Origin: Escherichia coli
GTDB taxonomy: Bacteria; Pseudomonadota; Gammaproteobacteria; Enterobacterales; Enterobacteriaceae
Length of the DNA: 64,000 nt
Assembly (NCBI RefSeq): GCF_003334405.1
Contig: NZ_QOWM01000007.1
Reading direction: 5' to 3' (one strand)
Shown piece after piece: positions 55 through 50,410 of this stretch (position 1 is its first letter; every line of letters begins with the position of its first letter). Made by a program: the position numbers and the translations under genes. The notes below the pieces were generated by a model, which did not search any database, was not told the origin of the DNA, and worked only from the letters and a program-made list of their open reading frames with translations.

Positions 55-155
55 TGCCTGATGCGCTACGCTTATCAGGCCTACGAAAATCTTGCAATGT
101 ATTGAATTTTCATGATTTTGTAGGCCGGATAAGGCGTTCACGCCGCATCCGGCAA
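55..155. repeat. Pair of REP (repetitive extragenic palindromic) elements in inverted orientation
   Basis: gcctgatgcgctacgcttatcaggcctac and gtaggccggataaggcgttcacgccgcatccggc match the E. coli REP consensus. Confidence 0.6.
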
Positions 156-168
156 GAAGCTATAAGAA

Positions 169-198
169 AAGGGCGGAGATCATCTCCGCCCTTTTTAT
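169..198 (+). terminator. Rho-independent terminator downstream of gyrB
   Basis: Hairpin gggcggagatcatctccgccc followed by a T-run (ctttttattt). Confidence 0.6.
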
Positions 199-273
199 TT
201 CTGCAATCCGCAATTATCATCCCGCAAATCTATACTTTTTGGGTCAACACGTAACGCTTTACAGGTGATTATC

Positions 274-672
274 ATGGGGCTTTTTGATGAAGTTGTCGGT
301 GCCTTTCTGAAAGGCGATGCGGGGAAATATCAGGCTATTTTAAGTTGGGTTGAGGAGCAGGGCGGCATTCAGGTGCTGCTGGAAAAACTGCAAAGTGGCG
401 GCTTAGGGGCCATTCTCTCAACCTGGCTGAGTAATCAACAGGGCAATCAATCGGTTAGTGGCGAGCAACTGGAATCGGCGCTCGGCACAAATGCGGTGTC
501 CGATCTCGGGCAAAAACTTGGCGTGGATACCAGTACAGCTTCCATTTTACTGGCAGAACAATTGCCGAAGATTATTGATGCGCTCTCACCGCAAGGTGAA
601 GTGTCACCACAAGCCAATAACGATCTGCTTTCCGCAGGCATGGAACTGCTGAAAGGGAAACTCTTCCGCTAA
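274..672 (+). CDS. yidB: DUF937-family protein YidB
   Basis: ORF 265..672 trimmed to MGLFDEVVGAF... (132 aa); sequence recognised as YidB. Confidence 0.85.
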   Translation: MGLFDEVVGAFLKGDAGKYQAILSWVEEQGGIQVLLEKLQSGGLGAILSTWLSNQQGNQSVSGEQLESALGTNAVSDLGQKLGVDTSTASILLAEQLPKIIDALSPQGEVSPQANNDLLSAGMELLKGKLFR

Positions 673-675
673 GCA

Positions 676-716
676 AAAAGGGAGCACGCAACGCGCGTTG
701 CATCCCCCTTTTCCCT
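676..716 (+). terminator. Terminator-like hairpin after yidB
   Basis: Perfect palindrome gcaacgcgcgttgc flanked by aaaaggg / ccccctttt arms. Confidence 0.4.
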
Positions 717-786
717 CGGGTGTTGTACTGATTTTTGAGCGGAATCGCGTTAGCATGGGTCAGGAACCAATCTACCTGGGGAACTC

Positions 787-1599
787 ATGGCTATTAAACT
801 CATTGCTATCGATATGGATGGCACCCTTCTGCTGCCCGATCACACCATTTCACCCGCCGTTAAAAATGCGATTGCCGCAGCTCGCGCCCGTGGCGTGAAT
901 GTCGTGCTAACGACGGGTCGCCCGTATGCAGGTGTGCACAACTACCTGAAAGAGCTGCATATGGAACAGCCGGGCGACTACTGCATTACTTATAACGGCG
1001 CGCTGGTACAGAAGGCCGCTGATGGTAGCACCGTGGCGCAAACTGCTCTCAGCTATGACGACTATCGTTTCCTGGAAAAACTCTCTCGCGAAGTCGGTTC
1101 TCATTTCCACGCCCTGGACCGCACCACGCTGTACACCGCCAACCGTGATATCAGCTACTACACGGTGCATGAATCCTTCGTTGCCACCATTCCGCTGGTG
1201 TTCTGCGAAGCGGAGAAAATGGACCCCAATACCCAGTTCCTGAAAGTGATGATGATTGATGAACCCGCCATCCTCGACCAGGCTATCGCGCGTATTCCGC
1301 AGGAAGTGAAAGAGAAATATACCGTGCTGAAAAGTGCGCCGTACTTCCTCGAAATCCTCGATAAACGCGTTAACAAAGGTACGGGGGTGAAATCACTGGC
1401 CGACGTGTTAGGTATTAAACCGGAAGAAATCATGGCGATTGGCGATCAGGAAAACGATATCGCAATGATTGAATATGCAGGCGTCGGTGTGGCGATGGAT
1501 AACGCTATTCCTTCAGTGAAAGAAGTGGCGAACTTTGTCACCAAATCTAACCTTGAAGATGGCGTGGCGTTTGCTATTGAGAAGTATGTGCTGAATTAA
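787..1599 (+). CDS. yidA: Sugar phosphatase YidA (HAD superfamily, Cof-type)
   Basis: 270-aa ORF with the HAD motif IAIDMDGTLL near the N-terminus and GDQENDIAM near the C-terminus. Confidence 0.95.
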   Translation: MAIKLIAIDMDGTLLLPDHTISPAVKNAIAAARARGVNVVLTTGRPYAGVHNYLKELHMEQPGDYCITYNGALVQKAADGSTVAQTALSYDDYRFLEKLSREVGSHFHALDRTTLYTANRDISYYTVHESFVATIPLVFCEAEKMDPNTQFLKVMMIDEPAILDQAIARIPQEVKEKYTVLKSAPYFLEILDKRVNKGTGVKSLADVLGIKPEEIMAIGDQENDIAMIEYAGVGVAMDNAIPSVKEVANFVTKSNLEDGVAFAIEKYVLN

Positions 1600-1606
1600 T
1601 CTGTGG

Positions 1607-1637
1607 GCGGGCAAACAGCATAAACGCGTTTGCCCGC
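1607..1637. terminator. Hairpin between convergent yidA and yidX
   Basis: gcgggcaaac ... gtttgcccgc stem (10 bp) between the two stop codons. Confidence 0.5.
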
Positions 1638-1644
1638 TTACTGA

Positions 1645-2301
1645 TTATTGGTTTACTGCATATACAACCAGAAATTGCAGCGGTGCAGTAATGATGTCCA
1701 GCGTAACAGTCACTGGCAGTAATGCTGCGGAAACACCATCCGGAATGCCTCTGGGTGAATAGTATTCATAAAATCGCACTTTAAATGGATGGTAGAACGC
1801 CATCACCTTTGAGTAATCCATGTTTTTATTTTTCTCATGGATTGTGCCTTTTAGGTTTTCCAGTGACCTGGTACAGTGTTGAACACCACAGGCAAAACCA
1901 TAATGCGTTGCCAGTGCCTTTTCTTCTTCGTTATTCCAGTAGTAGTAAAGCGATATTGTGCCGGTAAATTTCTTTTTCCCCGCATTTAAAACAAATCTTG
2001 CGTCATCGGCAACCTGAATATTGTGCCGGTTAAGTGCTGGATCATTGAGCATCTTAACGATGTCATCGGCACCATCAGTGATAAGGTAATCCAGCGATTC
2101 CCCTACAAAAACATAGCCTTTTGTTCCATTACTATCTTTTGCCTGCGATAGCCCAGTGATGGTGTCTGACTGCGATTGATACTTTCCTGAACTACCCTTT
2201 GCGGTATGGGAAACCAGAGCATACGAGATACAGCCTGAAAGCATCAGCGCCAGTGGGAATAAACCGGCAGCCTTAAAAAATCCCTTAAAATTCAACTTCA
2301 T
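1645..2301 (-). CDS. yidX: Predicted lipoprotein YidX
   Basis: ORF 1645..2418 trimmed to [24 protein letters not shown]... (218 aa); signal peptide with lipobox LSGC. Confidence 0.85.
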
Positions 2302-2438
2302 GATTAATCCTTTAAACGAGTAGCTAAGCCGTTGAAAGCATACTCTTCTTTCCCTCCTGTTTAGCGCCTGATATCCCTTTTCAGATTTCTGCCCGACGCA
2401 TGTCATTTTTTTATGCATTGTTCTTTTTGTGATCTAAA

Positions 2439-2514
2439 TTGTAGTACAACAATATAAGTTTGTACTACATTACACGCACGGCAAACGCGAACGTCATCAC
2501 GCTGGTACTACAAA
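2439..2514. promoter_or_regulatory. dgo promoter region with three TTGTA-N-TACAA-like operator repeats (candidate DgoR sites)
   Basis: ttgtagtacaa (2439-2449, perfect inverted repeat), ttgtactaca (2460-2469) and gtactacaa (2506-2514), all within 140 bp upstream of the dgoR ATG. Confidence 0.55.
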
Positions 2515-2578
2515 GTTGCCGCGTTATGCATCGATCGGGGTAAAGTAGAGAAGAACATACAGAGCACAAGGACTCTCC

Positions 2579-3268
2579 ATGACTCTCAATAAAACCGATC
2601 GCATTGTCATTACGCTGGGTAAACAGATCGTTCACGGCAAATACGTGCCAGGCTCGCCGCTTCCGGCTGAGGCGGAACTCTGTGAGGAGTTTGCAACCTC
2701 GCGCAACATCATCCGTGAGGTGTTCCGTTCGCTGATGGCGAAGCGGCTGATTGAAATGAAACGTTATCGCGGGGCGTTTGTGGCACCGCGTAACCAGTGG
2801 AATTACCTCGACACTGACGTACTGCAATGGGTGCTGGAAAATGACTACGACCCACGGCTTATCAGTGCCATGAGCGAAGTGCGAAATCTGGTGGAACCGG
2901 CGATTGCCCGTTGGGCAGCAGAGCGCGCGACTTCCAGCGATCTGGCGCAGATTGAATCGGCGCTGAACGAGATGATTGCCAACAATCAGGACCGCGAAGC
3001 GTTTAACGAAGCGGATATTCGCTACCACGAGGCGGTGCTGCAGTCGGTGCATAACCCGGTGTTACAGCAACTTAGCATTGCGATCAGTTCGCTGCAGCGG
3101 GCGGTTTTTGAACGAACCTGGATGGGCGATGAGGCCAACATGCCGCAAACGCTCCAGGAACATAAGGCGCTGTTCGATGCGATACGACATCAGGACGGCG
3201 ATGCGGCAGAGCAGGCGGCGCTTACCATGATCGCCAGCTCGACACGAAGGTTAAAGGAAATCACATGA
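2579..3268 (+). CDS. dgoR: GntR/FadR-family repressor of the D-galactonate operon
   Basis: 229-aa ORF with an N-terminal winged-HTH region (PLPAEAELCEEFATSRNIIREVF); first gene of the dgo operon. Confidence 0.95.
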   Translation: MTLNKTDRIVITLGKQIVHGKYVPGSPLPAEAELCEEFATSRNIIREVFRSLMAKRLIEMKRYRGAFVAPRNQWNYLDTDVLQWVLENDYDPRLISAMSEVRNLVEPAIARWAAERATSSDLAQIESALNEMIANNQDREAFNEADIRYHEAVLQSVHNPVLQQLSIAISSLQRAVFERTWMGDEANMPQTLQEHKALFDAIRHQDGDAAEQAALTMIASSTRRLKEIT

Positions 3269-4143
3269 CAGCTCGCTACATCGCAATTGACTGGGGATCG
3301 ACCAATCTGCGCGCCTGGCTTTATCAGGGCGACCACTGCCTGGAGAGCAGGCAATCAGAAGCAGGCGTCACGCGCCTGAACGGAAAATCTCCGGCTGCGG
3401 TGTTAGCAGAAGTCACGACCGACTGGCGTGAAGAGAAAACGCCAGTGGTAATGGCAGGAATGGTTGGCAGCAACGTCGGCTGGAAAGTTGCACCGTATTT
3501 ATCTGTTCCTGCCTGTTTTTCGTCTATTGGCGAACAATTAACGTCAGTTGGCGACAATATCTGGATTATTCCCGGATTATGTGTCTCTCATGACGATAAC
3601 CACAATGTGATGCGCGGCGAAGAAACACAATTGATCGGCGCGCGAGCTCTGGCTCCTTCCTCTCTTTATGTCATGCCCGGAACCCATTGCAAATGGGTGC
3701 AGGCCGATAGCCAGCAAATCAACGATTTTCGCACCGTGATGACCGGTGAATTACATCATTTACTGTTAAATCACTCATTGATTGGCGCAGGTTTGCCGCC
3801 GCAGGAAAACTCTGCCGATGCCTTCACAGCTGGCCTTGAGCGTGGTCTTAATACGCCCGCCATATTGCCGCAGCTTTTTGAAGTTCGCGCCTCGCATGTG
3901 CTGGGAACACTTCCCCGCGAACAGGTCAGCGAATTTCTCTCTGGTTTGTTGATTGGCGCAGAGGTCGCCAGTATGCGCGACTATGTGGCCCATCAACACG
4001 CCATCACCCTTGTCGCCGGAACATCGCTGACCGCGCGCTACCAGCAAGCCTTTCAGGCGATGGGTTGCGACGTGACGGCGGTGGCGGGCGACACGGCATT
4101 TCAGGCTGGTATAAGGAGCATCGCTCATGCAGTGGCAAACTAA
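3265..4143 (+). CDS. dgoK: 2-dehydro-3-deoxygalactonokinase
   Basis: 292-aa ORF; ATGA overlap with the dgoR stop; recognised DgoK sequence. Confidence 0.95.
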   Translation: MTARYIAIDWGSTNLRAWLYQGDHCLESRQSEAGVTRLNGKSPAAVLAEVTTDWREEKTPVVMAGMVGSNVGWKVAPYLSVPACFSSIGEQLTSVGDNIWIIPGLCVSHDDNHNVMRGEETQLIGARALAPSSLYVMPGTHCKWVQADSQQINDFRTVMTGELHHLLLNHSLIGAGLPPQENSADAFTAGLERGLNTPAILPQLFEVRASHVLGTLPREQVSEFLSGLLIGAEVASMRDYVAHQHAITLVAGTSLTARYQQAFQAMGCDVTAVAGDTAFQAGIRSIAHAVAN

Positions 4144-4744
4144 ACTCCCGCTGATCGCCATTTTGCGCGGTATTACGCCCGACGAGGCGCTGGCGCATGT
4201 TGGCGCGGTGATTGACGCCGGGTTCGACGCGGTTGAAATCCCGCTGAATTCCCCACAATGGGAGCAAAGCATTCCCGCCATCGTTGATGCGTACGGCGAC
4301 AAGGCGTTGATTGGCGCAGGTACGGTACTGAAACCTGAACAGGTCGATGCGCTCGCCAGGATGAGCTGTCAGCTCATCGTTACGCCCAATATCCATAGTG
4401 AAGTGATCCGCCGTGCGGTGGGCTACGGCATGACCGTCTGCCCCGGCTGCGCGACGGCGACCGAAGCCTTTACCGCGCTCGAAGCGGGCGCGCAGGCGCT
4501 GAAAATATTTCCGTCATCGGCTTTTGGTCCGCAATACATCAAAGCGTTAAAAGCGGTATTGCCATCGGACATCGCAGTCTTTGCCGTTGGCGGCGTGACG
4601 CCAGAAAACCTGGCGCAGTGGATAGACGCAGGTTGTGCAGGGGCGGGCTTAGGCAGCGATCTCTATCGCGCCGGGCAATCCGTAGAGCGCACCGCGCAGC
4701 AGGCAGCAGCATTTGTTAAGGCGTATCGAGAGGCAGTGCAATGA
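4127..4744 (+). CDS. dgoA: 2-dehydro-3-deoxy-6-phosphogalactonate aldolase
   Basis: 205-aa ORF; Shine-Dalgarno aaggag 9 bp upstream; overlaps the dgoK 3' end by 17 bp. Confidence 0.95.
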
Positions 4745-5889: not shown

Positions 5890-6008
5890 TTCCTGCCACG
5901 TAAGCCCCTCATCGGGCACTAAAACAGCAATACAAAAATATAACCCTCTGTAAATTACAGGGCATGGTGAGCGGCTTCGCTATGCCCAAAATCTGGAGAA
6001 AGCTCGCT

Positions 6009-8362: not shown

Positions 8363-8426
8363 CTTTTCACTCACATTCATCACGATGGCAAAAGACTATT
8401 GTCTGAAAGTGAAGTCCTTGTGAAGT

Positions 8427-9677: not shown

Positions 9678-9678
9678 A

Positions 9679-10011: not shown

Positions 10012-10185
10012 AATAAATTCATCTGTTGATCGTGGGTGTTGGCCTGATGAGTTATAGCGATCCCTTGCTGAAAATAACATCATCATTACGTCGCACTGTG
10101 GCGGCTATCGCACTTTAACGTTTCGTGCTGCCCCCTCAGTCTATGCAATAGACCATAAACTGCAAAAAAAAGTCCGCTGATAAGG

Positions 10186-10214: not shown

Positions 10215-10316
10215 TACATCGTAGCCGATGAGGACGCGCCTGATGGGTGTTCTGGCTACCTGACCTGTCCATTGTGGAAGGTCTTACATTCTCGCTGATT
10301 TCAGGAGCTATTGATT

Positions 10317-10730
10317 ATGCGTAACTTTGATTTATCCCCGCTTTACCGTTCTGCTATTGGATTTGACCGTTTGTTTAACCACTTAGAAAACAACCAGAGC
10401 CAGAGTAATGGCGGCTACCCTCCGTATAACGTTGAACTGGTAGACGAAAACCATTACCGCATTGCTATCGCTGTGGCTGGTTTTGCTGAGAGCGAACTGG
10501 AAATTACCGCCCAGGATAATCTGCTGGTGGTGAAAGGTGCTCACGCCGACGAACAAAAAGAGCGCACCTATCTGTACCAGGGCATCGCTGAACGCAACTT
10601 TGAACGCAAATTCCAGTTAGCTGAGAACATTCATGTTCGTGGTGCTAACCTGGTAAATGGTTTGCTGTATATCGATCTCGAACGCGTGATTCCGGAAGCG
10701 AAAAAACCGCGCCGTATCGAAATCAACTAA
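10317..10730 (+). CDS. ibpA: Small heat-shock protein IbpA (alpha-crystallin family)
   Basis: 137-aa [20 protein letters not shown]... recognised as IbpA; Shine-Dalgarno aggag at 10303-10307; the ORF-track start at 10311 is an upstream TTG. Confidence 0.95.
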
Positions 10731-11270: not shown

Positions 11271-11285
11271 CTAGCTATTCTCTTT

Positions 11286-14135: not shown

Positions 14136-17456
<3,321 letters not shown>

Positions 17457-22632: not shown

Positions 22633-23817
22633 TTAAACGGGCTGCCCCTGATGCGACATCCGCGTCGCCAGCGGCAGCCAGCACAGCACGATCAACAATC
22701 CCATTAAGGTCATCAACAACCCCAGGCTGCCCTGACCGGTTTGCGGCAACATCGCAGAGAGCGACGCCAGCACGCCGGAACCAATGTTTTGCAGACCGCC
22801 GACCAGCGCGCCAGCCGTGCCCGCCAGGAAGGGGAACGGCTCCATCGCGCCGCTGGTCGCCAGCGGAAACAGCATCCCGGCACCGAAAAAGAACAGCGCG
22901 GCGGGAACGAGCAGCGTCCAGACATTCATCACGCCAAACCAGTCGGGGATCCACATCAGCAAGCCAGCCAGCAGGCAGCAGATAACCGACTGCCACATTA
23001 ACGTGGAGAAGCGTTTATTGGGACGTCCGGCAAACCATGCGCCAAAAAACGCTGCCGGAATCGGCAGAATAAACAAAATACTGACCGTCATACTGCTCAG
23101 CCCTAACACCGCGCCCATCAGCACGCCGGAGCAGGCTTCAAAGGCGGCAATCCCGGCCAGACCGCCAATCAGCATCAGCAAATAACAGTTAAAACCGCTG
23201 TTACCGAAAAGCGTTTTATAACTGGTAAGCAGGCGCGTGCGCGGTGCATCGACCGGACGCGTTTCCGGCATCCAGCGGGCCATACTGAAGGTCACACCAG
23301 CACAAAGAACCAACAAAAAGAGATAACAGGCGCGCCAGTTCCACATCGTATCCAGCAGACCGCCGATTAGCGGTGCGAGCAACGGACTGACGAGAATCCC
23401 CATGTTTAACAGGCTGTTAGCATGGCGCAACTGTGTCCGTTCATATAAATCTCGCGGTAAAGTACGCGCCATTACGCCGCCAACGCCGGTGCCCATCCCC
23501 TGCATCGCGCTGGCGGCAATCAACACCGTCAAACTGGAGGTCGTGACCGCGACCAGCGTTGCCAGCATAAAAATGGACATTCCGACGAGGATCACCGGTC
23601 GGCGGCCCACGCGGTCGGAAATCGGGCCATAAAACAGCTGTGAGACACCGTAAGTCAGCAGATAAGCGCCCATTACGCTCTGCACCGCCCCTTCACGGAC
23701 GTTGAGATCGCGCGCCATATCGGCAATAGCTGGAATATAAATGGTTTGCGCCATCTGACCGACGGCCACGAGTAATACCAACATCAATAACAAATTGACG
23801 TTTCTTTGCCTTTTCAT
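22633..23817 (-). CDS. emrD: Multidrug efflux MFS transporter EmrD
   Basis: ORF 22633..23823 trimmed to MKRQRNVNLLLMLVLLVAVGQMAQ... (394 aa). Confidence 0.9.
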   Translation of the reverse strand: MKRQRNVNLLLMLVLLVAVGQMAQTIYIPAIADMARDLNVREGAVQSVMGAYLLTYGVSQLFYGPISDRVGRRPVILVGMSIFMLATLVAVTTSSLTVLIAASAMQGMGTGVGGVMARTLPRDLYERTQLRHANSLLNMGILVSPLLAPLIGGLLDTMWNWRACYLFLLVLCAGVTFSMARWMPETRPVDAPRTRLLTSYKTLFGNSGFNCYLLMLIGGLAGIAAFEACSGVLMGAVLGLSSMTVSILFILPIPAAFFGAWFAGRPNKRFSTLMWQSVICCLLAGLLMWIPDWFGVMNVWTLLVPAALFFFGAGMLFPLATSGAMEPFPFLAGTAGALVGGLQNIGSGVLASLSAMLPQTGQGSLGLLMTLMGLLIVLCWLPLATRMSHQGQPV

Positions 23818-23991
23818 TATCACGGATGCTTTTATAAAAATAATTAGAATAAGTCACTACGCATTCCCATAAATGCGGGAGAGGAATCTATCACATTGAT
23901 GAATGTTAGCCAGATATACGCCAGGAATGGGGAATTGTTTAGCGGCAGAATATGTAAACAAAAGCGGCAATAAATGTTGCCGGGAGAGATG

Positions 23992-24028
23992 GTAGGGCGG
24001 ATAAGATGCGTCAGCATCGCATCCGACA
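23992..24028. repeat. REP element
   Basis: gtagggcggataagatgcgtcagcatcgcatccgaca resembles the REP consensus. Confidence 0.5.
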
Positions 24029-24042
24029 CCAACCCGCACGCT

Positions 24043-24077
24043 AAATATAAAAGGGGAGCGGTTTCCCGCTCCCCTTT
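24043..24077 (-). terminator. Rho-independent terminator of the tisAB transcript
   Basis: aaggggagcgg-ttt-cccgctcccctt hairpin 20 bp past the tisB stop, followed on the minus strand by a T-run. Confidence 0.6.
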
Positions 24078-24096
24078 GGTGCGACTTGAATCTGAA

Positions 24097-24186
24097 TTAC
24101 TTCAGGTATTTCAGAACAGCATCAAGCAGTTGCAGTGCTGCAACAATGAGTTTGAGGATAAGAATGGCGATATCCACCAGGTTCAT
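24097..24186 (-). CDS. tisB: Type I toxin TisB (29-aa membrane peptide, SOS-induced)
   Basis: Minus-strand translation gives MNLVDIAILILKLIVAALQLLDAVLKYLK then stop; too short for the ORF track. Confidence 0.9.
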   Translation of the reverse strand: MNLVDIAILILKLIVAALQLLDAVLKYLK

Positions 24187-24420
24187 ACGCGTCTCCTGTG
24201 GTTCAGGAGCACTGCCAGCTGACGTACCTTTCCGCTGCCTGTTGCCAGCTGTTGTGCACGCGGTATCTCAAGGAGAAACGTTGTGCTTGTTGACATAACA
24301 CAGTGTGCTCACGCGGGGTTAAGGCGCTGACGGCACCACCCGTTTCAGCCAGGACTTAGTGCGCCGGGTAACGATGCGGCCCCCGCATAACACATTGCGT
24401 ACAGTGATATTATAGAAGTT

Positions 24421-24440
24421 TACTGTATAAATAAACAGTA
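24421..24440. promoter_or_regulatory. LexA operator (SOS box) of the tisAB/istR locus
   Basis: tactgtataaataaacagta, a perfect 20-bp palindrome matching the CTGT-N8-ACAG consensus, about 235 bp upstream of tisB. Confidence 0.85.
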
Positions 24441-24546
24441 ATATTTGGACAAAACGCAAACTGTGATCGATACTCAACTATGCACTAAATACGTCAAAAT
24501 TCGTGCCGAAATTGCGCGTTCTGCGCGGAACACGTATACTTTCAGT

Positions 24547-24622
24547 GTTGACATAATACAGTGTGCTTTGCGGTTACCAGCCGCAGGCGACTGACGAAAC
24601 CTCGCTCCGGCGGGGTTTTTTG
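24547..24622 (+). ncRNA. istR: Candidate IstR-1 antitoxin sRNA (boundaries approximate)
   Basis: Candidate -10 tatact at 24535-24540; a 21-nt segment (24547-24567) repeats the tisAB leader segment 24319-24339; ends at a hairpin plus gggtttttt at 24601-24622. Confidence 0.5.
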
Positions 24623-24750
24623 TTATCTGCAATTCAGTACAAAACGTGATCAACCCCTCAATTTTCCCTTGCTGAAAAATTTTCCATTGTCTCCCCTGTA
24701 AAGCTGTGCTTGTATAAATATTGTTAAACACAAAACCAACAAGGTCCCCA

Positions 24751-32008: not shown

Positions 32009-33775
32009 TTATTCCGTGACTTCCAGCGTAGTGAAGGCAAACTTCTCGCCATCAAATAGCCCCTGACTGGTTAGTTTTAGCGCGGGGATCACTGGCAGAG
32101 AAAGAAACGCCATCTGAATAAACGGCTCATCGGGTAACGGACCGCATTCACGGGCGGCGGCTTTCAAGGCGTCAATTTGTTCCGCCAGCGACTGCGCCGT
32201 GTCGGTGCTCATCAGCCCGGCAATGGGTAACGGCAGATGACTTTGTACCTGGCCGTTACGTACCACGCACAGCCCGCCGCCATCCTGAATCACCTGATTG
32301 ACCGCCAGCGCCATCTCTTCGGCACTGCGACCGATCACCACAATATTATGGCTGTCATGGCTGACCGTCGCAGCCAGCGCACCTTCATTCAGTCCAAAGC
32401 CGCCAAGCAAACCACAAGCCGGAGCCAGCCGTTGCCCGTAACGCTCAAGTACGGCAATAAAGCTCACATCATCGCGATCAAAACCATTTTCGCTGTAGAC
32501 GCTGGAGTGGGAGTGCGTAATCAATTCGTTATGGATGACGTCAATGACCCGATAGCGTTTTCCGGGCGTAAATTGCAGGGCAAAGTCGCTGGCGGAAACT
32601 GGCTGGCGGGCAATGGTGTTGCCATATGGCGGAGCGGATTGTGCCAGTCTCGCCGACTCTTCCGCCTGTAAGGTTTGCGCATCAATCGGCTCGCCTTTCA
32701 CCAGTACCTGCTGCACCGTGACCTTACGCGCATCGCTCAACAGGACGATATCGGCCTGCTTGCCGGGTGCCAGTAAGCCGAGGTGATTCAGACCAAAGTG
32801 GCGCGCCGTCGACCAGCTGGCGACGCGATATGCCACATGCAGCGGCACATTGTGTTGTTCGATCAGGCGGCGAATTAAGGCATCGATGTGTCCTTCATGG
32901 GCGATCTCCCACGGGTTACGGTCATCGGTACAGAGCATGCATTGCGGGCTGTTAAATTCGTTGATCAACGGTGCCAGCGCGTTGAGATTGCGGGCAGCGG
33001 ACCCTTCGCGGATCATCAACGACATGCCGAGTTGTAATTTCCGGCGTCCTTCTTCCAGCTGATAACTTTCGTGGCAGTTTTCAATACCCGCAGTAATATA
33101 GGCGTTAAGTTCTTTACCACCCAAACCCGGGCAGTGACCGTCCAGCGTCAGGTGGCGAAATGCATCCAGTTTATCGAGCAGCGCATTCTGCCCGCTAATT
33201 ACGCCAGGGTAGTCCATCATTTCTGCAAGGCCGGTAACCTGCGGATGGTCCCGCCAGGCGAGCATCTGTTCAAGGGTAAAACTGGCACCGTTAACATCGC
33301 AGCCTTCCAGGGCGGGTACGCAAGAGCTGACCTGTAAGTACTGGTTTTGCCTTGCCTGTTCGGCACAGCGGGCAAACCAGGCGAATCCGGCTTCGCCCAT
33401 CACGTTGACGATTTCATGAGGGTCGCAAATAACGGTCGTCAGGCCGCGCGGCAGGGTAGCGGTTTCAAAAGTGACCGGCGTCATCATGCTGGATTCAATA
33501 TGCAGGTGAGCATCAATAAACCCTGGCACCGCCGTTGCGCCGCGAGCATCAATCCGCTGCAAAGCCGGAGCATCAGTGTATTCTGCGCCAACACCGGCAA
33601 TGTAACGTCCTTTAATCACAATTGGGCCGGAAATTTCTCCGCCATTGATCAGGTCGAGAATAGAGACATTATCAATAATATAATCGGCAACAGCGTCGCC
33701 ACGGGAAACGGCTAACAATTCCTGGTATTCAGCCCGGCTAATGTGATGAAATTTATGGTTAATAGAATTATTCAT
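32009..33775 (-). CDS. ade: Adenine deaminase
   Basis: 588-aa ORF with amidohydrolase metal-binding motifs ([13 protein letters not shown]). Confidence 0.95.
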
Positions 33776-35336: not shown

Positions 35337-35789
35337 ATGATCTGGATAATGCTCGCCACGCTGGCGGTAGTGTTTGTGGTTGGTTTTCGGGTGCTGACAT
35401 CCGGGGCCAGAAAAGCGATTCGCCGTCTCAGCGATCGGCTGAACATCGATGTCGTACCCGTGGAGTCGATGGTCGATCAAATGGGAAAGTCAGCTGGTGA
35501 CGAATTTTTACGTTATTTGCATCGTCCGGATGAGTCGCACCTGCAAAACGCCGCGCAGGTGTTGCTCATCTGGCAAATTGTCATTGTCGATGGTAGCGAA
35601 CAGAACCTGCTGCAATGGCATCGGATTTTACAAAAAGCTCGCCTCGCCGCGCCGATTACCGACGCTCAGGTCAGGCTGGCGCTAGGTTTTCTGCGCGAAA
35701 CCGAACCTGAAATGCAGGATATTAATGCTTTTCAGATGCGCTATAACGCGTTCTTTCAGCCTGCCGAGGGCGTTCACTGGTTGCATTGA
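35337..35789 (+). CDS. yicN: DUF1198 protein YicN
   Basis: ORF 35310..35789 trimmed to MIWIMLATLAVVFVVG... (150 aa); single N-terminal transmembrane helix. Confidence 0.8.
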   Translation: MIWIMLATLAVVFVVGFRVLTSGARKAIRRLSDRLNIDVVPVESMVDQMGKSAGDEFLRYLHRPDESHLQNAAQVLLIWQIVIVDGSEQNLLQWHRILQKARLAAPITDAQVRLALGFLRETEPEMQDINAFQMRYNAFFQPAEGVHWLH

Positions 35790-35795
35790 AACCGT

Positions 35796-35866
35796 TTCGT
35801 CTTATCAGCCTACAGACCGCGCCTGACCTGTCGGGTGGATAAGACGTTCACGCCGCATCCGGTAAT
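35796..35866. repeat. Pair of REP elements
   Basis: cgtcttatcagcctac ... ggataagacgttcacgccgcatccgg match the REP consensus; they overlap the spurious 5' extension of the nepI ORF. Confidence 0.5.
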
Positions 35867-35999
35867 CTTTGCCCTGTTCCGTTTCGATCTTAACTCCAGC
35901 TCAAGCAACACCGTAAAAGTTGCAAAAACGTTAAATGCGTCACACATTTCAATGTTAAAGTGGTCGGCTTTTCCCCTGAAACATGCCACGGGTAACACC

Positions 36000-37190
36000 A
36001 TGAGTGAATTTATTGCCGAAAACCGCGGCGCGGATGCCATCACCCGACCGAACTGGTCAGCCGTTTTCTCGGTGGCGTTTTGTGTCGCCTGTCTGATTAT
36101 CGTTGAGTTTTTGCCCGTCAGTTTGTTGACGCCAATGGCCCAGGATTTAGGCATTTCGGAAGGGGTTGCCGGGCAATCGGTGACCGTGACCGCCTTTGTG
36201 GCAATGTTTGCCAGTTTGTTTATTACCCAGACAATTCAGGCTACTGACCGCCGCTACGTTGTTATTTTGTTTGCCGTTTTGCTGACGCTCTCCTGCTTGC
36301 TGGTTTCCTTTGCTAACTCATTCAGTTTGCTTTTAATCGGTCGTGCCTGTCTGGGGCTGGCGCTGGGCGGGTTCTGGGCGATGTCGGCGTCGCTGACCAT
36401 GCGTCTGGTGCCGCCGCGTACGGTGCCGAAGGCGCTGTCGGTGATCTTCGGCGCGGTTTCTATTGCGCTGGTGATTGCCGCGCCGTTGGGCAGTTTTTTA
36501 GGCGAGCTTATCGGTTGGCGCAATGTCTTTAATGCGGCGGCGGTGATGGGCGTGCTGTGTATTTTCTGGATTATCAAATCATTGCCTTCACTGCCAGGCG
36601 AACCCTCGCATCAGAAACAAAATACTTTCCGCTTATTACAACGTCCGGGTGTGATGGCAGGGATGATCGCCATCTTCATGTCTTTCGCCGGGCAGTTTGC
36701 TTTCTTCACGTATATTCGCCCGGTGTATATGAACCTGGCGGGATTCGGCGTGGATGGCTTAACGCTGGTGCTGTTGAGTTTTGGTATCGCCAGCTTTATT
36801 GGTACGTCGCTTTCGTCGTTCATTCTTAAACGTTCGGTAAAACTGGCCTTAGCAGGCGCGCCGTTAATACTGGCTGTGAGTGCGTTGGTACTGACGTTGT
36901 GGGGAAGCGATAAAATCGTTGCTACCGGCGTGGCGATTATCTGGGGGCTAACTTTTGCATTGGTTCCCGTCGGCTGGTCAACGTGGATCACCCGCTCGCT
37001 GGCCGATCAGGCAGAAAAAGCCGGGTCTATTCAGGTGGCGGTTATTCAGCTTGCTAATACCTGTGGCGCGGCAATCGGCGGTTATGCGCTGGATAATATT
37101 GGTCTGACTTCGCCGTTGATGTTGTCCGGCACATTGATGTTGCTGACTGCATTGTTGGTTACTGCAAAGGTGAAAATGAAGAAATCCTGA
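36000..37190 (+). CDS. nepI: Purine ribonucleoside efflux pump NepI (MFS)
   Basis: ORF 35835..37190 trimmed to [23 protein letters not shown]... (396 aa). Confidence 0.9.
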
Positions 37191-41422: not shown

Positions 41423-41517
41423 TGGCGGAAGATCACAGGAGTCGAACCTGCCCGGGACCGCTGGCGGCCCCAACTGGATTTGAAGTCCAGCCGCCTCACC
41501 GGAGACGACGATCTTCC
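41423..41517 (-). tRNA. selC: tRNA-Sec (selenocysteine tRNA, UCA anticodon)
   Basis: Minus strand reads GGAAGATCGTCGTCTCCGGTGAGGCGGCTGGACTTCAAATCCAGTTGGGGCCGCCAGCGGTCCCGGGCAGGTTCGACTCCTGTGATCTTCCGCCA, the E. coli selC sequence, 95 nt including the encoded CCA. Confidence 0.95.
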
Positions 41518-41809
41518 GCGCCTCGATTGCTACATGGAGGCGGGGCGCATTATAGCTACTTCCTTGAGTTTCTACATCCCCCAGATCAGTTTTTTCCGCC
41601 TAATACACGCAGCGTATTATCACGAAAGCATTATAGTTCATATAAAATCCATATTTTACAATGATATATGAGCGGAATTAACGCTACCACGATCACATAA
41701 AACAAGAATCATAAATTAATAACCAGATATCGGAATATTCGCTCTCACAGGGATGGTTTACAAAATGCGTTATCGGTCTCAGCACCCCTATAGCATCAAG
41801 GAAAAGTAG

Positions 41810-43192: not shown

Positions 43193-43201
43193 GGAACGGC
43201 A

Positions 43202-45520
43202 ATGAAAATTAGCGATGGAAACTGGTTGATTCAACCTGGCCTCAATTTGATTCACCCGCTTCAGGTGTTCGAGGTTGAACAGCAGGGTAATGAAATGGTG
43301 GTCTATGCTGCCCCCCGTGATGTGCGTGAACGTACCTGGCAGCTTGATACGCCTTTATTTACGCTGCGCTTTTTCTCCCCACAGGAAGGTATTGTCGGTG
43401 TACGGATTGAGCATTTTCAGGGGGCGCTGAATAACGGTCCTCATTACCCACTCAATATTTTGCAGGACGTGAAGGTCACAATCGAAAACACAGAGCGTTA
43501 TGCTGAGTTTAAAAGTGGCAACTTAAGTGCGCGTGTCAGCAAAGGTGAGTTCTGGTCACTGGATTTTCTGCGCAACGGCGAACGTATTACCGGTAGTCAG
43601 GTGAAAAATAATGGCTACGTGCAGGACACGAATAATCAACGAAATTATATGTTTGAGCGGCTGGATCTTGGCGTTGGCGAAACAGTTTATGGTCTGGGAG
43701 AGCGCTTCACTGCCCTGGTGCGCAATGGTCAAACGGTAGAGACCTGGAACCGGGACGGCGGCACAAGTACTGAACAGGCGTATAAAAATATCCCGTTCTA
43801 CATGACTAACCGTGGTTATGGGGTACTGGTCAATCATCCCCAATGCGTCTCTTTTGAAGTGGGATCGGAGAAAGTCTCCAAAGTGCAGTTCAGCGTTGAG
43901 AGTGAATATCTCGAATACTTTGTTATCGACGGTCCGACGCCGAAAGCGGTACTTGATCGTTATACCCGCTTTACTGGTCGTCCGGCGCTGCCGCCCGCGT
44001 GGTCCTTCGGTCTGTGGCTAACCACTTCATTTACCACCAACTACGACGAGGCGACAGTAAACAGCTTTATCGATGGTATGGCGGAACGCAATCTGCCACT
44101 GCATGTTTTCCACTTTGACTGTTTCTGGATGAAAGCCTTCCAGTGGTGCGATTTTGAGTGGGACCCGCTGACTTTCCCGGACCCGGAAGGGATGATCCGC
44201 CGCCTGAAAGCGAAAGGGCTGAAAATCTGCGTCTGGATTAACCCCTATATCGGGCAAAAATCCCCCGTCTTTAAAGAGTTACAAGAGAAAGGCTATTTAC
44301 TCAAACGCCCGGACGGTTCGCTGTGGCAGTGGGATAAATGGCAGCCAGGTCTGGCGATTTATGACTTTACCAATCCGGATGCCTGCACATGGTACGCCGA
44401 CAAACTGAAAGGTCTGGTCGCGATGGGCGTTGATTGCTTTAAGACCGACTTTGGCGAACGTATCCCAACCGATGTTCAGTGGTTTGACGGTTCCGATCCG
44501 CAGAAAATGCATAACCATTATGCGTACATCTACAACGAACTGGTGTGGAACGTGCTCAAGGACACCGTTGGTGAGGAAGAAGCCGTCTTGTTTGCCCGCT
44601 CGGCCTCCGTTGGTGCGCAGAAATTCCCGGTACACTGGGGTGGTGACTGTTACGCTAACTACGAATCAATGGCGGAAAGCCTGCGCGGTGGTTTGTCTAT
44701 TGGCCTTTCAGGTTTTGGCTTCTGGAGCCACGATATCGGCGGCTTTGAAAATACCGCTCCGGCACACGTTTACAAACGCTGGTGCGCGTTTGGTTTGCTC
44801 TCCAGCCATAGCCGTTTACATGGCAGCAAATCTTATCGTGTGCCGTGGGCCTACGATGATGAGTCCTGTGATGTGGTGCGCTTCTTCACGCAACTGAAAT
44901 GCCGCATGATGCCGTATCTGTATCGTGAAGCTGCGCGTGCAAACACGCGGGGTACGCCGATGATGCGGGCCATGATGATGGAGTTCCCGGACGATCCGGC
45001 TTGTGATTACCTTGACCGTCAATACATGTTAGGCGACAACGTGATGGTTGCGCCGGTGTTCACTGAAGCGGGCGATGTGCAGTTCTACCTGCCGGAAGGT
45101 CGCTGGACACACCTGTGGCACAACGATGAACTCGACGGTAGTCGCTGGCATAAACAGCAGCACAGCTTCCTGAGTCTGCCCGTTTATGTGCGTGATAACA
45201 CTCTACTGGCGCTGGGCAACAACGATCAACGTCCCGATTACGCGTGGCACGAAGGCACGGCATTCCACCTCTTTAATCAGCAAGACGGGCATGAAGCCGT
45301 CTGTGAAGTGCCCGCTGCTGACGGTTCGGTGATCTTTACTCTAAAAGCAACACGTACTGGTAACACGATTACTGTGATTGGTGCGGGCGAGGCGAGGAAC
45401 TGGACACTGTGCTTGCGCAATGTTGTGAAAGTAAATGGTCTGCAAGGCGGTTCGCAGGCTGAAAGTGAGCAGGGGCTGGTGGTGAAGCCTCAAGGGAATG
45501 CGCTGACAATTACGTTGTAA
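43202..45520 (+). CDS. yicI: Alpha-xylosidase (glycoside hydrolase family 31)
   Basis: 772-aa ORF starting 10 bp after yicJ; recognised YicI sequence. Confidence 0.95.
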
Positions 45521-45572
45521 TCTATTGATGGAATGCCGGGTACGTCTGAGTCGTACCCGACGAGATTGATGT

Positions 45573-47282
45573 TTACTGCACCGGCTCCGTCGATGTAACT
45601 TCACCGCTGGAAACGACGCCCGCATTCATGGTTTGAGTCACTTGCTGCTTTGCGGCGTTCACGGCATGCAATTGCCCGCTAACCGTAGGTTTCAGCGGGG
45701 CATTGGCCTGAATATCTCCACTGGCGGTAAGCTGAATATTGCCGTCGCCAGTCAACGGTAATTCAGGCCATCCCCATTGTTGCAAAATATTCACCGGCAC
45801 ACCGCGTCCATTCAGGCTGATATGGGTCTGACGTTGTGGCGTTTGTGAAACACTGGCGGTGGCTTCCAGAATGCCTTTTTCAGTAAATGCACTCAGTTCG
45901 CTGATATTCACCGTGCTGCTGTTGGCGGTCAGCGCCAGCGACGGGCGACGAACATCAACACGATTGAATGTCGCGGCGGCGGCATTCAGATTCGCCGAGC
46001 CACTCCAGACGCCCCATTTATGATCGGTAACCAGCGTCAGGTTGGCACCGTAACCATCGAGCGTGGTGAGCTGCCACGGGAAGTCAGGGTCGATATCAAT
46101 GATCAGATTGCGGCTGGCGCTAAATCTCTTCAGTTGCAGGCTGTTTAACCAACCGGGTGTCGTTTCCATCCACAACTGTTGCCAGTTTTTCGGCAAGGTA
46201 TATTCCAGCCCGGCAATTGCCGCATCATCAAGGATCAACGTTTTCCCGTCACGCAGCCAGTTCCCTGACGTTCTGACCATACCCCCTTCCCAGCGGCTGG
46301 TGAACTGGCGCAGCGCTACGCCCTGCGGGGAAAATTCCGCGTTTATAATCGGGTCAAATAAATGCAGCGAACCATAAATGAACTCGCTAGCGTTCATCGA
46401 CAGTTTGCCTTCTTGTGTCTGCCAGTCATCTTTACTGAAGGTCATGTTGCGCAAGCTGAGATCGAGGTCGGTCACCGCCCAGTCCGGACCTTGCAAACGA
46501 GCATCGATCACTTCCAGGCGACCAATCTGCAACGACGGGACAGAGCGTAATGGCGCAAAGAAGTCGGTTAGCGATTTTTCGCTTTGTAGACGGATATCCG
46601 CCATGCGCAGGTTTTCCACTTGCCAGCTGCCGTCGGCGTTACGCTGCGCGTTTCCGGTTAATGTCCCGCGCGCGATGTCGGCACCCAGGTTAGTCAGCGT
46701 AACGCGATCGTTATCAATACTGCCTTCAATCAGTACATTGGTGGCAGGAACATCATTGAGCGAAAGCGATCCGGCACTAAACTGAATCTGCGCCTTCGTA
46801 CCCAGCACTTTACCGGCTTCTGGTGACCACGGAACCACGCCGCCATTTACCCGCTGCGCGCTCAGTTTCCATTCGCTATTCGGGCTATTAAACGCCATAT
46901 CACGCAGTTGCAGACGATCGGCTTTGAACGGTAGCGGCGCGGTCTGGTCGGTGAGATTCAGCGTCCCGTTTTCCAGCAGGATGGTATCGACATGGCGTGG
47001 TTCGGTCAGTTGCCGACTACTTAGCGCAATGTCGACACTTTTGGCCACCAGGGTCGCGGGCTGGCCATCACGACCAAACGTGACATTCTCCAGCACGATA
47101 TGAGATGGCGCGGAAAAACGGTGATCCATCGCCCCGAAGGCCAGATGATAGTCGCTATTCTCGGAAACCCATGCGCTGATATGTTCTGCTCCCCAGCGGG
47201 TTTGCAGAAGAAAATAGAGGCCAGCGATCACCACTAACAGAGCGATGAGAATGTAGAGAAGCAGCTTCCCAATAAATTTCAT
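45573..47282 (-). CDS. yicH: AsmA-family protein YicH
   Basis: ORF 45573..47306 trimmed to MKFIGKLLLYILIALLVVIAGLYF... (569 aa); N-terminal membrane anchor. Confidence 0.85.
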   Translation of the reverse strand: MKFIGKLLLYILIALLVVIAGLYFLLQTRWGAEHISAWVSENSDYHLAFGAMDHRFSAPSHIVLENVTFGRDGQPATLVAKSVDIALSSRQLTEPRHVDTILLENGTLNLTDQTAPLPFKADRLQLRDMAFNSPNSEWKLSAQRVNGGVVPWSPEAGKVLGTKAQIQFSAGSLSLNDVPATNVLIEGSIDNDRVTLTNLGADIARGTLTGNAQRNADGSWQVENLRMADIRLQSEKSLTDFFAPLRSVPSLQIGRLEVIDARLQGPDWAVTDLDLSLRNMTFSKDDWQTQEGKLSMNASEFIYGSLHLFDPIINAEFSPQGVALRQFTSRWEGGMVRTSGNWLRDGKTLILDDAAIAGLEYTLPKNWQQLWMETTPGWLNSLQLKRFSASRNLIIDIDPDFPWQLTTLDGYGANLTLVTDHKWGVWSGSANLNAAAATFNRVDVRRPSLALTANSSTVNISELSAFTEKGILEATASVSQTPQRQTHISLNGRGVPVNILQQWGWPELPLTGDGNIQLTASGDIQANAPLKPTVSGQLHAVNAAKQQVTQTMNAGVVSSGEVTSTEPVQ

Positions 47283-47402
47283 GGTCTTCCATCCCGTGAA
47301 ATGCACATAAGGGAGTTATGCACGATTTACGCGCAATCCTCAAGGCGGGAATGGTGAAAGAGGTGAGACTGCGGCGGTAATTATCTTACCGCCGCCAGTG
47401 AA

Positions 47403-48794
47403 TTACTGTTTTTCTGGTGGGAAAATCAGATTCAGCACGATGGCAGTAATACCGCCCGCGGCGATCCCGGAGGAGAGCAGGTTTTTCAGCCATTCAGGGG
47501 CAAACTGCAAAATCAGCGGCTGCTGAGACACGCCCAGACCAACCGCCAGCGACAGCGCGATAATCAGAATCGCCCGACGGTTCAGCGGCTCACGAGAAAC
47601 GATACGCACACCGGAGGCGGCGATGGTGCCAAACATTACAAGCGTTGCGCCGCCCAGAACCGGTTCTGGAATGTGTTGTACAAAACCGCTCACTGCCGGG
47701 AACAGACCCAGCACGATCAACATCAGCGCGACGACAAAACCGACATAGCGGCTGGCAACACCAGTCAACTGGATCACTCCGTTGTTTTGCCCGAAGCAGG
47801 AGTTCGGGAAGGTGTTAAACACCGCCGAAACAAACGAGTTCAGGCCGTTTGCCAGCACGCCACCTTTCAGGCGTTTCATGTACAGCGGACCGGACACTGG
47901 CTGTTCGGAAACGTCAGAGGTCGCCGTGATATCGCCAATGGTTTCCAGCGAAGTGATCATAAAGACCAGCATCAGCGGCAGCAGCAGACTCCATTCAATG
48001 CCAAGACCGTAATAGAGCGGCGTTGGCACCATAATCAGTTCTTGCGTCATCGGTTCGTTGCTTTCTGGCAACATGCCCATAAACCACGCCAGCGCATATC
48101 CGGCCGCCATCGCAATCACCAGTGAGGCCACGCGTAAGTAAGGGTTACGTTGACGGTTAAGCAGGATAATTAAGGCTAAGACCACGCCTGCCAGCAGCAG
48201 ATTTTTCGGTGCGCCGAAGGTGTTATCGCTCATGGCTGCGTAACCGCCGCCAATGGACGTTAACCCAACCTGAATTAGCGACAGGCCGATAATCATCACC
48301 ACAACGCCAGAAACCAGCGGCGTAATAATGCGGCGCGCCAGATGCAGAACGCGGGAGATCACCATCTCGGTGCAACTTGCCAGCATCAACGTGCCGAACA
48401 AAGCCGCCATCATGGTAGGAACATCAGCACCACCGGTTTTCAGCGCGGTACCGCCCATAATCAGCGGGGCAACAAAGTTGAAGCTGGTGCCCTGAATAGA
48501 CAACAGCCCGGAGCCAACCGGACCCCAGGCCTTAATTTGAATAATCGATGCCACACCGGAGGCAAACAGCGACATACTAATAATGTGTTGCGTGTCTTGT
48601 GCCGGTAAACCCAGCGCCTGGCAGATTAATAGCGCTGGCGTGATCACCGCAACGAACATCGCCAGCAGATGCTGACAGGCGGCAAACAGGGTTTGAGGAA
48701 GCGGCGGACGATCTTCAAGACGGTAAATCAGTTCGCTGTTTTGAGTCTGCGCAACCGGTTGCGCATTTTCTGACTCGAGGGTGGAAACAGACAT
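47403..48794 (-). CDS. xanP: Xanthine permease (NCS2 family)
   Basis: ORF 47403..48803 trimmed to [16 protein letters not shown]... (463 aa). Confidence 0.9.
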
Positions 48795-49073
48795 CGAAAA
48801 CAATCCCGTGGTAGCAAAGCGGGCATTTTAGCTGACCGAAAGAGAAAAGCAAACGTTTGCCACATCCTCATCTAAATATTTAAATGAGATAAATGCACTT
48901 TTTTATATAACTTTTGGTATTTTTCTGCTTAAAATCCATGCCATTTGTTCATTAACAGCTGAGAATTTGACCCAGGAAAGCATAACTCGATACCCGTCAT
49001 AGTTCATGAAGTTGCCACTGCGCGATGAAGTATGACGAGTATGAAAGAGTGATGCGGATACAAAGGAGTAACT

Positions 49074-50279
49074 ATGTTTCATCTCGATACTTTAGCAACG
49101 CTTGTTGCCGCAACGCTGACGTTGCTGCTCGGGCGTAAGTTGGTCCATTCCGTCTCCTTTTTGAAGAAATACACCATACCGGAACCTGTTGCGGGTGGTT
49201 TGTTGGTGGCGCTGGCGCTACTAGTACTGAAAAAAAGCATGGGCTGGGAAGTCAACTTTGATATGTCCCTGCGCGATCCGTTAATGCTGGCTTTCTTCGC
49301 CACCATTGGCCTGAACGCCAACATTGCCAGTTTGCGTGCCGGTGGGCGTGTGGTTGGCATCTTCTTGATTGTGGTTGTTGGTCTGTTGGTGATGCAAAAT
49401 GCCATTGGCATTGGTATGGCTAGCCTGTTAGGGCTTGATCCGCTGATGGGGCTGTTGGCCGGTTCTATTACGCTTTCCGGCGGTCACGGTACGGGCGCTG
49501 CGTGGAGTAAATTGTTCATTGAACGTTATGGCTTCACCAATGCGACGGAAGTGGCGATGGCCTGTGCAACGTTCGGTCTGGTGCTGGGCGGCTTGATTGG
49601 CGGTCCGGTGGCGCGCTATCTGGTGAAACACTCCACCACGCCGAACGGTATTCCGGATGACCAGGAAGTCCCGACGGCGTTTGAAAAGCCGGATGTGGGC
49701 CGCATGATCACCTCGTTGGTGCTGATTGAAACTATCGCGCTGATTGCTATCTGCCTGACGGTGGGGAAAATTGTTGCGCAACTTTTGGCTGGCACTGCTT
49801 TTGAACTGCCGACCTTCGTCTGTGTACTGTTTGTTGGCGTGATTCTGAGCAACGGTCTGTCAATAATGGGCTTTTACCGCGTCTTTGAGCGTGCGGTATC
49901 CGTGCTGGGTAACGTAAGCTTGTCGTTGTTCCTGGCGATGGCGTTGATGGGGCTGAAACTGTGGGAGCTGGCTTCGCTGGCGCTGCCGATGCTGGCGATT
50001 CTGGTGGTACAGACCATCTTCATGGCGTTGTATGCCATCTTCGTTACCTGGCGCATGATGGGCAAAAACTACGATGCGGCAGTGCTGGCTGCGGGTCACT
50101 GTGGTTTTGGCCTCGGTGCAACGCCAACGGCAATCGCCAACATGCAGGCGATCACTGAACGCTTTGGCCCGTCGCACATGGCGTTTTTGGTGGTGCCGAT
50201 GGTCGGTGCGTTCTTTATCGATATCGTCAATGCGCTGGTAATTAAGTTGTATTTGATGTTGCCGATTTTTGCCGGTTAA
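49074..50279 (+). CDS. gltS: Sodium/glutamate symporter
   Basis: 401-aa ORF recognised as GltS. Confidence 0.95.
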   Translation: MFHLDTLATLVAATLTLLLGRKLVHSVSFLKKYTIPEPVAGGLLVALALLVLKKSMGWEVNFDMSLRDPLMLAFFATIGLNANIASLRAGGRVVGIFLIVVVGLLVMQNAIGIGMASLLGLDPLMGLLAGSITLSGGHGTGAAWSKLFIERYGFTNATEVAMACATFGLVLGGLIGGPVARYLVKHSTTPNGIPDDQEVPTAFEKPDVGRMITSLVLIETIALIAICLTVGKIVAQLLAGTAFELPTFVCVLFVGVILSNGLSIMGFYRVFERAVSVLGNVSLSLFLAMALMGLKLWELASLALPMLAILVVQTIFMALYAIFVTWRMMGKNYDAAVLAAGHCGFGLGATPTAIANMQAITERFGPSHMAFLVVPMVGAFFIDIVNALVIKLYLMLPIFAG

Positions 50280-50322
50280 CCGATGAAGCGGCGGTAGAAG
50301 TGCCGCCGCAACAAAGACAAAT

Positions 50323-50410
50323 GCCTGATACGCTTCGCTTATCAAGCCTGCGTATTGATTCATAATTTATTGAATTTGTAGGGTGAATCGCATCCGGCAG
50401 GAAGGTAGGG
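50323..50410. repeat. REP elements
   Basis: gcctgatacgcttcgcttatcaagcctgcg and gtagggtgaatcgcatccggcag are REP-like palindromic units. Confidence 0.45.

Follow-up and report, generated by a model that had tools for sequence, protein, structure and literature searches.

The stretch of Escherichia coli DNA analysed here (64 kb of contig NZ_QOWM01000007.1, called the window below) is chromosomal and is collinear with the reverse strand of the K-12 MG1655 genome (NC_000913.3) at 3.878-3.814 Mb; a window base w converts to K-12 position 3,877,739 - w. Four of its intergenic regions carry repetitive extragenic palindromic (REP) sequences. According to the K-12 annotation, locus 1 (54-155) lies between the end of gyrB (1-34, +) and yidB (274-672, +), locus 2 (23990-24029) between ysdE (23899-23973, +) and tisB (24097-24186, -), locus 3 (35796-35863) between yicN (35337-35789, +) and nepI (36000-37190, +, with an ATG start at 36000), and locus 4 (50321-50398) between gltS (49074-50279, +) and the end of recG (near 50448, -). 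Each locus is 3' of at least one neighbouring gene. An earlier note on this DNA, made from the sequence without database searches, had placed locus 2 between emrD (22633-23817, -) and tisB; the locus is intergenic as stated, but its position is between ysdE and tisB, upstream of emrD.

The four loci belong to the classical enterobacterial family of REPs (palindromic units) and bacterial interspersed mosaic elements (BIMEs), i.e. imperfect palindromes that are 29-37 nt long, carry GTAG at the foot and have a conserved internal mismatch bulge. A probability of about 95% is given to this assignment. At loci 1 and 2 the main units are intact, and those of loci 3 and 4 are decayed members of the family.

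Identification of the REP units

A reference set was taken from six 50-kb stretches of K-12 (300 kb) that are far from the window, in order to avoid circularity, and these were scanned with a two-arm consensus. The scan yielded 42 genuine REP units at 20 intergenic loci, together with one false match within rpnC and one duplicate. All 42 units sit between annotated genes. Stem positions are paired in 96.5% of the cells of their alignment, vs 31%-44% after the partner columns have been shifted by 1-3 positions, and four of the stem pairs show compensatory changes, e.g. G-C to U-A in 17 sequences. A covariance model built from this alignment (termed R1) was used to search the window with filters off.

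R1 gave five significant matches (E-value = 0.002 or less), and all are within the four loci: the Y unit of locus 1 at 118-155 (-; 62.1 bits, E = 6e-13), the Z1 unit of locus 1 at 54-86 (+; 46.8 bits, E = 3e-9), the locus 2 unit at 23990-24029 (-; 35.0 bits, E = 2e-6), the core of the locus 3 Y unit at 35837-35860 (-; 24.4 bits, E = 7e-4) and the locus 4 Z1 unit at 50321-50353 (+; 22.7 bits, E = 2e-3). There is no further match with an E-value under 0.5 in the 128 kb that make up both window strands; the next one (E = 0.57) is the Y palindrome read on its other strand. The earlier note had described REP-type palindromic units at these four ranges, to be checked with a REP consensus scan, and it is borne out by matches there and nowhere else in the window. 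The "at least four" REP regions of the note are four confirmed regions, and exactly four at the sensitivity of R1. Inverted pairs, also expected by the note, are found in full at 54-155 and in part at 35796-35863 and 50321-50398; 23990-24029 is a single unit.

Two weaker R1 matches, at 44840-44856 and 60375-60393 (E about 1), were taken as chance matches since they are within the coding sequences of yicI and yicC. A half-site at 10038-10051, a lone 14-mer, was rejected as a REP.

The arms of the window units read GCCKGATGCG and CTTATCMGGCCTAC at the four ranges, and these are the familiar REP arms. The two-arm scan detects five units in the window, vs a mean of 0.15 (maximum 2) in 200 first-order Markov simulations, and when the window is compared by blastn with the 300-kb sample of unrelated K-12 sequence, the only matches are at 55-158 (19 matches), 23992-24028 (2) and 35798-35876 (10). 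A consensus pattern with a fixed loop matched nothing because the loop lengths of Y, Z1 and Z2 units differ, and it was superseded by the two-arm scan and the covariance model. A window-wide repeat search found one REP pair only (family D16, the Y units of loci 1 and 3), and the remaining repeat families resemble chance matches in coding DNA. At one locus per 16 kb, the window is as dense in REP loci as the K-12 sample, which has one per 15 kb. Intact window units fold at z-scores of -3.4 to -4.4, and folds of the window units display the conserved internal mismatch bulge. No instance was seen of shuffled or coding sequence with scores comparable to those of REP units, nor of a mismatch with the curated MG1655 REP annotation.

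Gene ends often have short GC-rich hairpins, as in intrinsic (Rho-independent) terminators, and two of the R1 matches (loci 3 and 4) are weak. It could thus be argued that the palindromes are chance hairpins or ordinary terminators unrelated to REPs. However, the window REPs lack a U-tract, and true terminator hairpins are present beside them as separate structures (166-199 and 24050-24077). The R1 model was built outside the window and gives no other match under E = 0.5 on either strand, and the simulated sequences have far fewer scan matches than the window. The alignments to full BIMEs also extend into the linkers, and the corresponding Y unit at locus 3 in O157:H7 has an intact GTAG. For loci 1 and 2 a chance or terminator origin is already refuted, and for the set as a whole its probability is close to nil.

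Structure of the four loci

Locus 1 is an intact, canonical BIME-1, consisting of Z1, an L linker and an inverted Y. The Z1 unit (54-86, +) and the Y unit (118-155, -) are arranged tail-to-tail across the 31-nt linker (87-117), and over its full length the locus can be aligned, base for base, with five BIME-1 elements of K-12, those of cueO-gcd, uvrB-ybhK, rhlE-ybiA, ybiO-glnQ and yqeA-yqeB. The GTAG foot of Z1 is present as CTAC at 81-84, and the unit is predicted to form an RNA hairpin of -13.2 kcal/mol (z = -3.4). Bases 56-85 are identical to the published Z1 sequence GCCTGATGCGCTACGCTTATCAGGCCTACG (PMC11208160). The Y unit has an intact GTAG at 120-123, differs from the published Y (PMC11208160) by one loop base, and is predicted to form a hairpin of -20.9 kcal/mol with the conserved internal bulge. 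The linker retains the CAATnTATTGAATTT block, which holds a core like that of integration host factor (IHF) sites, CAATGTATTGAAT, at 95-107; the core pattern is unspecific by itself (12 matches vs 5.6 expected). Compared with BIME-1 (RIP/RIB) elements, locus 1 is the same in sequence, GTAG, bulge, Z1-L-Y order, IHF-type core, 3' position and single copy, with no difference found.

A hairpin resembling an intrinsic terminator follows at 166-199 (+; fold of -23.3 kcal/mol, z = -5.8), and it is succeeded by the U-run UUUUUAUUU. It was missed by a terminator pattern scan because of its short loop. Since this hairpin is 3' of the BIME-1, the BIME is inside the gyrB 3' untranslated region (UTR).

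The Rfam family ES036 (RF02751, ES036/CssrF) matches positions 77-119 on the minus strand with 44.8 bits, which exceeds its gathering threshold of 37.6 bits, and this raises the question of whether the segment is a discrete small RNA gene and not a BIME linker. However, of the four other BIME-1 elements within the K-12 stretches that were searched, two also have an L linker matched by ES036 (positions 15606-15647 and 32310-32352 of stretch L004), and no promoter-like site was found within window positions 1-400. Matches at several BIME-1 linkers indicate that the family models a dispersed REP-flanked repeat segment and not a unique gene, and a small RNA gene at this position is very improbable. 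The Rfam family naRNA4 (RF02564) matches Y/Z2 pairs of BIME-2 elements. Both families in effect model dispersed repeats, and their matches should not be counted as unique small RNA genes.

Locus 2 is a solitary REP unit (23990-24029, -) located 17 nt 3' of the ysdE stop codon. It has an intact GTAG at 23992-23995, is predicted to form a hairpin of -19.7 kcal/mol (z = -4.4), and resembles the K-12 units between ybhJ and ybhC (GTCGGATGCGATGC...GCATCTTATCCGAC). On the strand of tisB, a terminator is present at 24050-24077 (-) and the REP is just beyond it. Further matches above the Rfam gathering threshold in the window are an IstR antitoxin RNA at 24492-24621 (+) and a ROSE_2 thermoregulator upstream of ibpA at 10251-10323 (+); both are expected for the corresponding K-12 region.

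Locus 3 consists of part of a Z2-type unit and a decayed Y unit. The tail half of the Z2-type unit (35796-35812, +; CGTCTTATCAG-CCTACA) begins 7 nt 3' of the yicN stop codon; it has a one-base deletion and keeps the GTAG foot, as CTAC at 35808-35811, and the head half is missing. The Y unit (35830-35863, -) is 86% identical to the Y at 119-155, has GTCG instead of GTAG at its foot (35830-35833), and holds a GTG at 35835. The locus aligns with the BIME between malE and malF, including the Z2 tail. Like that element, and like BIME-2 elements (the Y/Z2 type that is cleaved by gyrase, as in naRNA4/REP325), it has a Y tail-to-tail with a Z2-type tail. It differs from BIME-2 in having half a Z2, one copy and not a tandem array, and a mutated Y foot, and it was not assigned to this class. 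Rfam naRNA4 gave no match in the window, though it matched five Y/Z2 pairs elsewhere in K-12.

In the predicted fold, the half-Z2 and Y tails of locus 3 are able to pair as a composite hairpin. It is conceivable, though rather unlikely, that this hairpin couples termination of yicN translation to the fate of the mRNA. Such a coupling was reportedly described by Liang et al. (2015) for REPs close to stop codons, with involvement of transfer-messenger RNA.

Locus 4 is a degraded BIME-1, and it aligns only partly with the K-12 BIME-1 elements. The decayed Z1 unit (50321-50353, +) has GCAG instead of GTAG at its foot (read as CTGC at 50348-50351). By alignment with BIME-1 elements, the L linker (50354-50374) falls 10 nt short of the consensus length, yet it keeps an IHF-like core, TAATTTATTGAAT, at 50363-50375, the last base of which is shared with the adjoining Y remnant. 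The remnant (50375-50398, -) has an intact GTAG at 50375-50378 and a 13-nt internal deletion that removes part of the stem and loop; K-12 carries three extra bases in it. The foot, the shorter linker and the loss of 13 nt from Y are the differences from BIME-1 (RIP/RIB) elements.

Strain variation and distribution

All four loci vary structurally between E. coli strains. The first 3 kb of the window is matched in all 5,426 complete E. coli genomes searched, and the window allele is covered by at least 80% in 4605, 4356, 3668 and 1873 of these genomes for loci 1, 2, 3 and 4, respectively. Window and K-12 are 99.985% identical across w 1-32,739 and 99.24% identical across the remainder. Up to about w 41,000 there are merely 5 differing positions, and from about 41000 to 64000, after selC (tRNA-Sec, 41427-41517), the divergence is about 1%. 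This jump past selC suggests a recombination mosaic boundary near selC.

At gltS-recG, the strains AVS0542 and 18b display "empty-site" alleles with a 33-nt spacer and a single hairpin. Relative to these alleles, the window is longer by 132 nt (50290-50421), which hold a second hairpin and the decayed BIME-1. GGCGG is found at both edges of the segment, so that its boundary is ambiguous by 5 nt. An allele without a BIME after gyrB was also found in another strain. The presence of both filled and empty alleles at gltS-recG and gyrB-yidB is a sign of mobility and turnover.

The Z1 unit of locus 1 carries ATCAGGCCTAC at 74-84, an exact copy of the 11-nt natural target of IS621 and the one exact copy in the window. 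In strain UTAK-12 (NZ_CP168981.1), an IS621 element (IS110 family) is inserted in Z1 of the gyrB-yidB BIME-1 (approximately positions 520-1815 of the retrieved region L010), and the point of insertion is exactly ATCAGGCCT^AC, the natural bridge-RNA target. With this exact target of the IS621 bridge-RNA recombinase, the intact Z1 at 54-86 is a place where insertion can be predicted, and UTAK-12 is the one strain found with such an insertion.

Other variants are found at loci 2 and 3. The ysdE-tisB spacer (approximately 23984-24700) is strain-variable: NU14 is without tisB and istR and has only a decayed REP remnant after ysdE, and in CREC-591 the place of the solitary REP is taken by another GC-rich palindromic repeat, about 175 nt long. 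In O157:H7 strains (FRIK2455), a RelE/ParE toxin gene and a helix-turn-helix antitoxin-like gene are present between yicN and nepI, directly after the Y REP (35864 onward). The IS621 insertion in Z1, the RelE/ParE module of O157:H7, the absence of tisB/istR in NU14 and the 132-nt site at gltS-recG all coincide with REPs. Strain-specific DNA may be gained and lost at the REPs themselves, which would then be true junctions and not merely passive markers, but this is a tentative idea and rather unlikely.

The earlier note had also regarded REPs as a signature of E. coli-type chromosomes, and counts from chromosomes and plasmids support this statistically. A 300-base query that contains the BIME has at least 205,329 chromosomal places vs at least 166 plasmid places in the 5,426 E. 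coli genomes, and the median genome has 40 or more of them. In the PLSDB database, 473 of 72,556 plasmid records show a match, and the best of these are megabase-sized records that are evidently chromosomes or chromids. REPs are not strictly absent from plasmids. A phage collection yields matches in 62 of its 50,697 records; among those listed, many are chromosomal contigs, transduced host DNA (such as a lambda bio phage) or records with foreign DNA. Two records annotated as "Campylobacter phage" (MG065686.1 and MG065691.1, A18a and A11a) include DNA that is 100% identical to the gyrB-yidB BIME region (50-160), with four REP-matching places each; part of their sequence is probably of E. coli origin. 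An exact copy of Y does not identify E. coli, since many copies are present in E. albertii, Citrobacter and Pseudocitrobacter among the matches listed. The wording of the note, that REPs are such a signature "rather than mobile DNA", is loose, because REPs count as mobile elements themselves, of a non-autonomous kind (PMC3333891, PMC8266576).

Possible roles and relation to known elements

About 600 REP units, grouped into 355 annotated elements, are present in E. coli (PMC8266576; bioRxiv 10.64898/2026.03.23.713779). In the proposed origin, REP units would be non-autonomous, cut and joined as single-stranded DNA hairpins by TnpA_REP, a single-copy Y1 transposase (RAYT, REP-associated tyrosine transposase) that requires GTAG. 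The GTAG foot is essential for binding and cleavage by E. coli TnpA_REP, and no GTAG mutation is tolerated (PMC8266576). The GTAG-footed units of loci 1 and 2 are thus potential TnpA_REP substrates, whereas the units with GTCG or GCAG feet, and the truncated units, are expected to have lost this property. The K-12 annotation shows no transposase gene in the stretch that matches the window; the E. coli RAYT gene is outside it. The REPINs/RAYTs of Pseudomonas and other bacteria are comparable: they are inverted REP doublets for which mobilisation in trans by a Y1 (HUH) transposase, present in a single copy, has been proposed (PMC3116915, PMC2817692). They are a different sequence family.

All copies in the window are at 3' ends of transcription units, where their transcripts would fold into stable hairpins that may block 3'-to-5' exonucleases. 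Transcribed REPs may also cause partial termination that is often Rho-dependent. Both activities, mRNA stabilisation and partial Rho-dependent termination, have been described for REPs and are strongly context-dependent (bioRxiv 10.64898/2026.03.23.713779). The L linkers of BIME-1 elements frequently carry an IHF site (PMC3333891), and from the literature the linker of a BIME-1 may bind IHF on DNA. BIME-2 elements are gyrase targets (PMC3333891, PMC6379681). By analogy, locus 1 possibly has an IHF-binding and a 3' UTR role, and a role as a 3' UTR hairpin is possible for locus 2. Loci 3 and 4 are probably relics.

Some points weigh against the assignment of all four loci to the REP/BIME family and against a role for them. 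The partial units at 35796-35812 (8.3 bits) and 50375-50398 (5.8 bits) are not significant alone with R1; they are recognised by alignment alone, their identity following from their alignment to full BIMEs. The whole-element folds of loci 3 and 4 are no better than those of shuffled sequences (z = -1.8 and -1.7), which argues against a maintained structural role there. The REP of locus 2 is past the intrinsic terminator of tisB on the tisB strand and may rarely be transcribed from that side. Finally, the effects of REPs depend on context and are often absent (bioRxiv 10.64898/2026.03.23.713779).

It may be asked, then, whether the elements are REPs by descent that persist as neutral, selfish leftovers without a host function at the four loci, and especially at loci 3 and 4. 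The mutated GTAG feet, truncated stems and shuffle-level folds of these two loci are in accordance with this, as is the finding that each locus is dispensable in some E. coli genomes, and no consistent influence of REPs on mRNA half-life emerges from the literature. On the other hand, most genomes have the intact BIME-1 after gyrB with an identity of 95% or more, the element retains a conserved L linker with an IHF-type core, and according to the literature REPs are associated genome-wide with upstream-biased expression. Neutrality at all four loci is a serious possibility, though not the favoured one.

The elements are textbook REP/BIME repeats, and two of them are already catalogued in K-12; the finding is not new. 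REP280 (gyrB-yidB, tandem) is at K-12 3,877,587-3,877,684, which corresponds to w 55-152, and REP278 (yicN-nepI, tandem) is at 3,841,877-3,841,945, which corresponds to w 35794-35862. These names are from the supplementary table of a preprint (bioRxiv 10.64898/2026.03.23.713779), as the RefSeq table of NC_000913.3 lists no repeat_region features. REP279 and the gltS-recG element were looked for in the supplement and not found. A region listed under "NusG minus" in the same table overlaps REP278 by 27 nt.

A terminator hairpin between the convergent genes yicH and yicI (K-12 3,832,172-3,832,209; w 45535-45561), which the table links to "REP277" in a manner that is uncertain, was not counted as a Y, Z1 or Z2 REP: it scores 1 bit or less with R1, has no GTAG foot and no CTTATC arm, and shows no similarity to the K-12 sample. 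Its sequence is GCCGGGTACG-TCTGAGT-CGTACCCGAC, which starts with a REP-like TGCCGG and has an A for the K-12 G in the 3' arm.

The value of recognising these repeats is practical, in the hygiene of annotation, and not scientific; the finding by itself brings no new biology. REPs had been said in the earlier note to account for spurious starts of open reading frames, including a 5' extension of nepI, and this is confirmed at loci 1, 3 and 4. The mechanically derived nepI open reading frame starts at GTG 35835 within the Y REP and so gains 55 codons ahead of the annotated ATG, and its N-terminus is translated REP. At locus 1, a 66-aa open reading frame (54-254) begins at the head of Z1, and another (40-141, -) begins within Y. 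At locus 4, a 167-aa open reading frame antisense to gltS begins at 50361-50363, in the linker of the decayed BIME-1. Spotting the REPs prevents over-extension of the kind seen at nepI and the annotation of phantom open reading frames such as the 66-aa and 167-aa examples, and the repeats mark the window as native enterobacterial chromosome.

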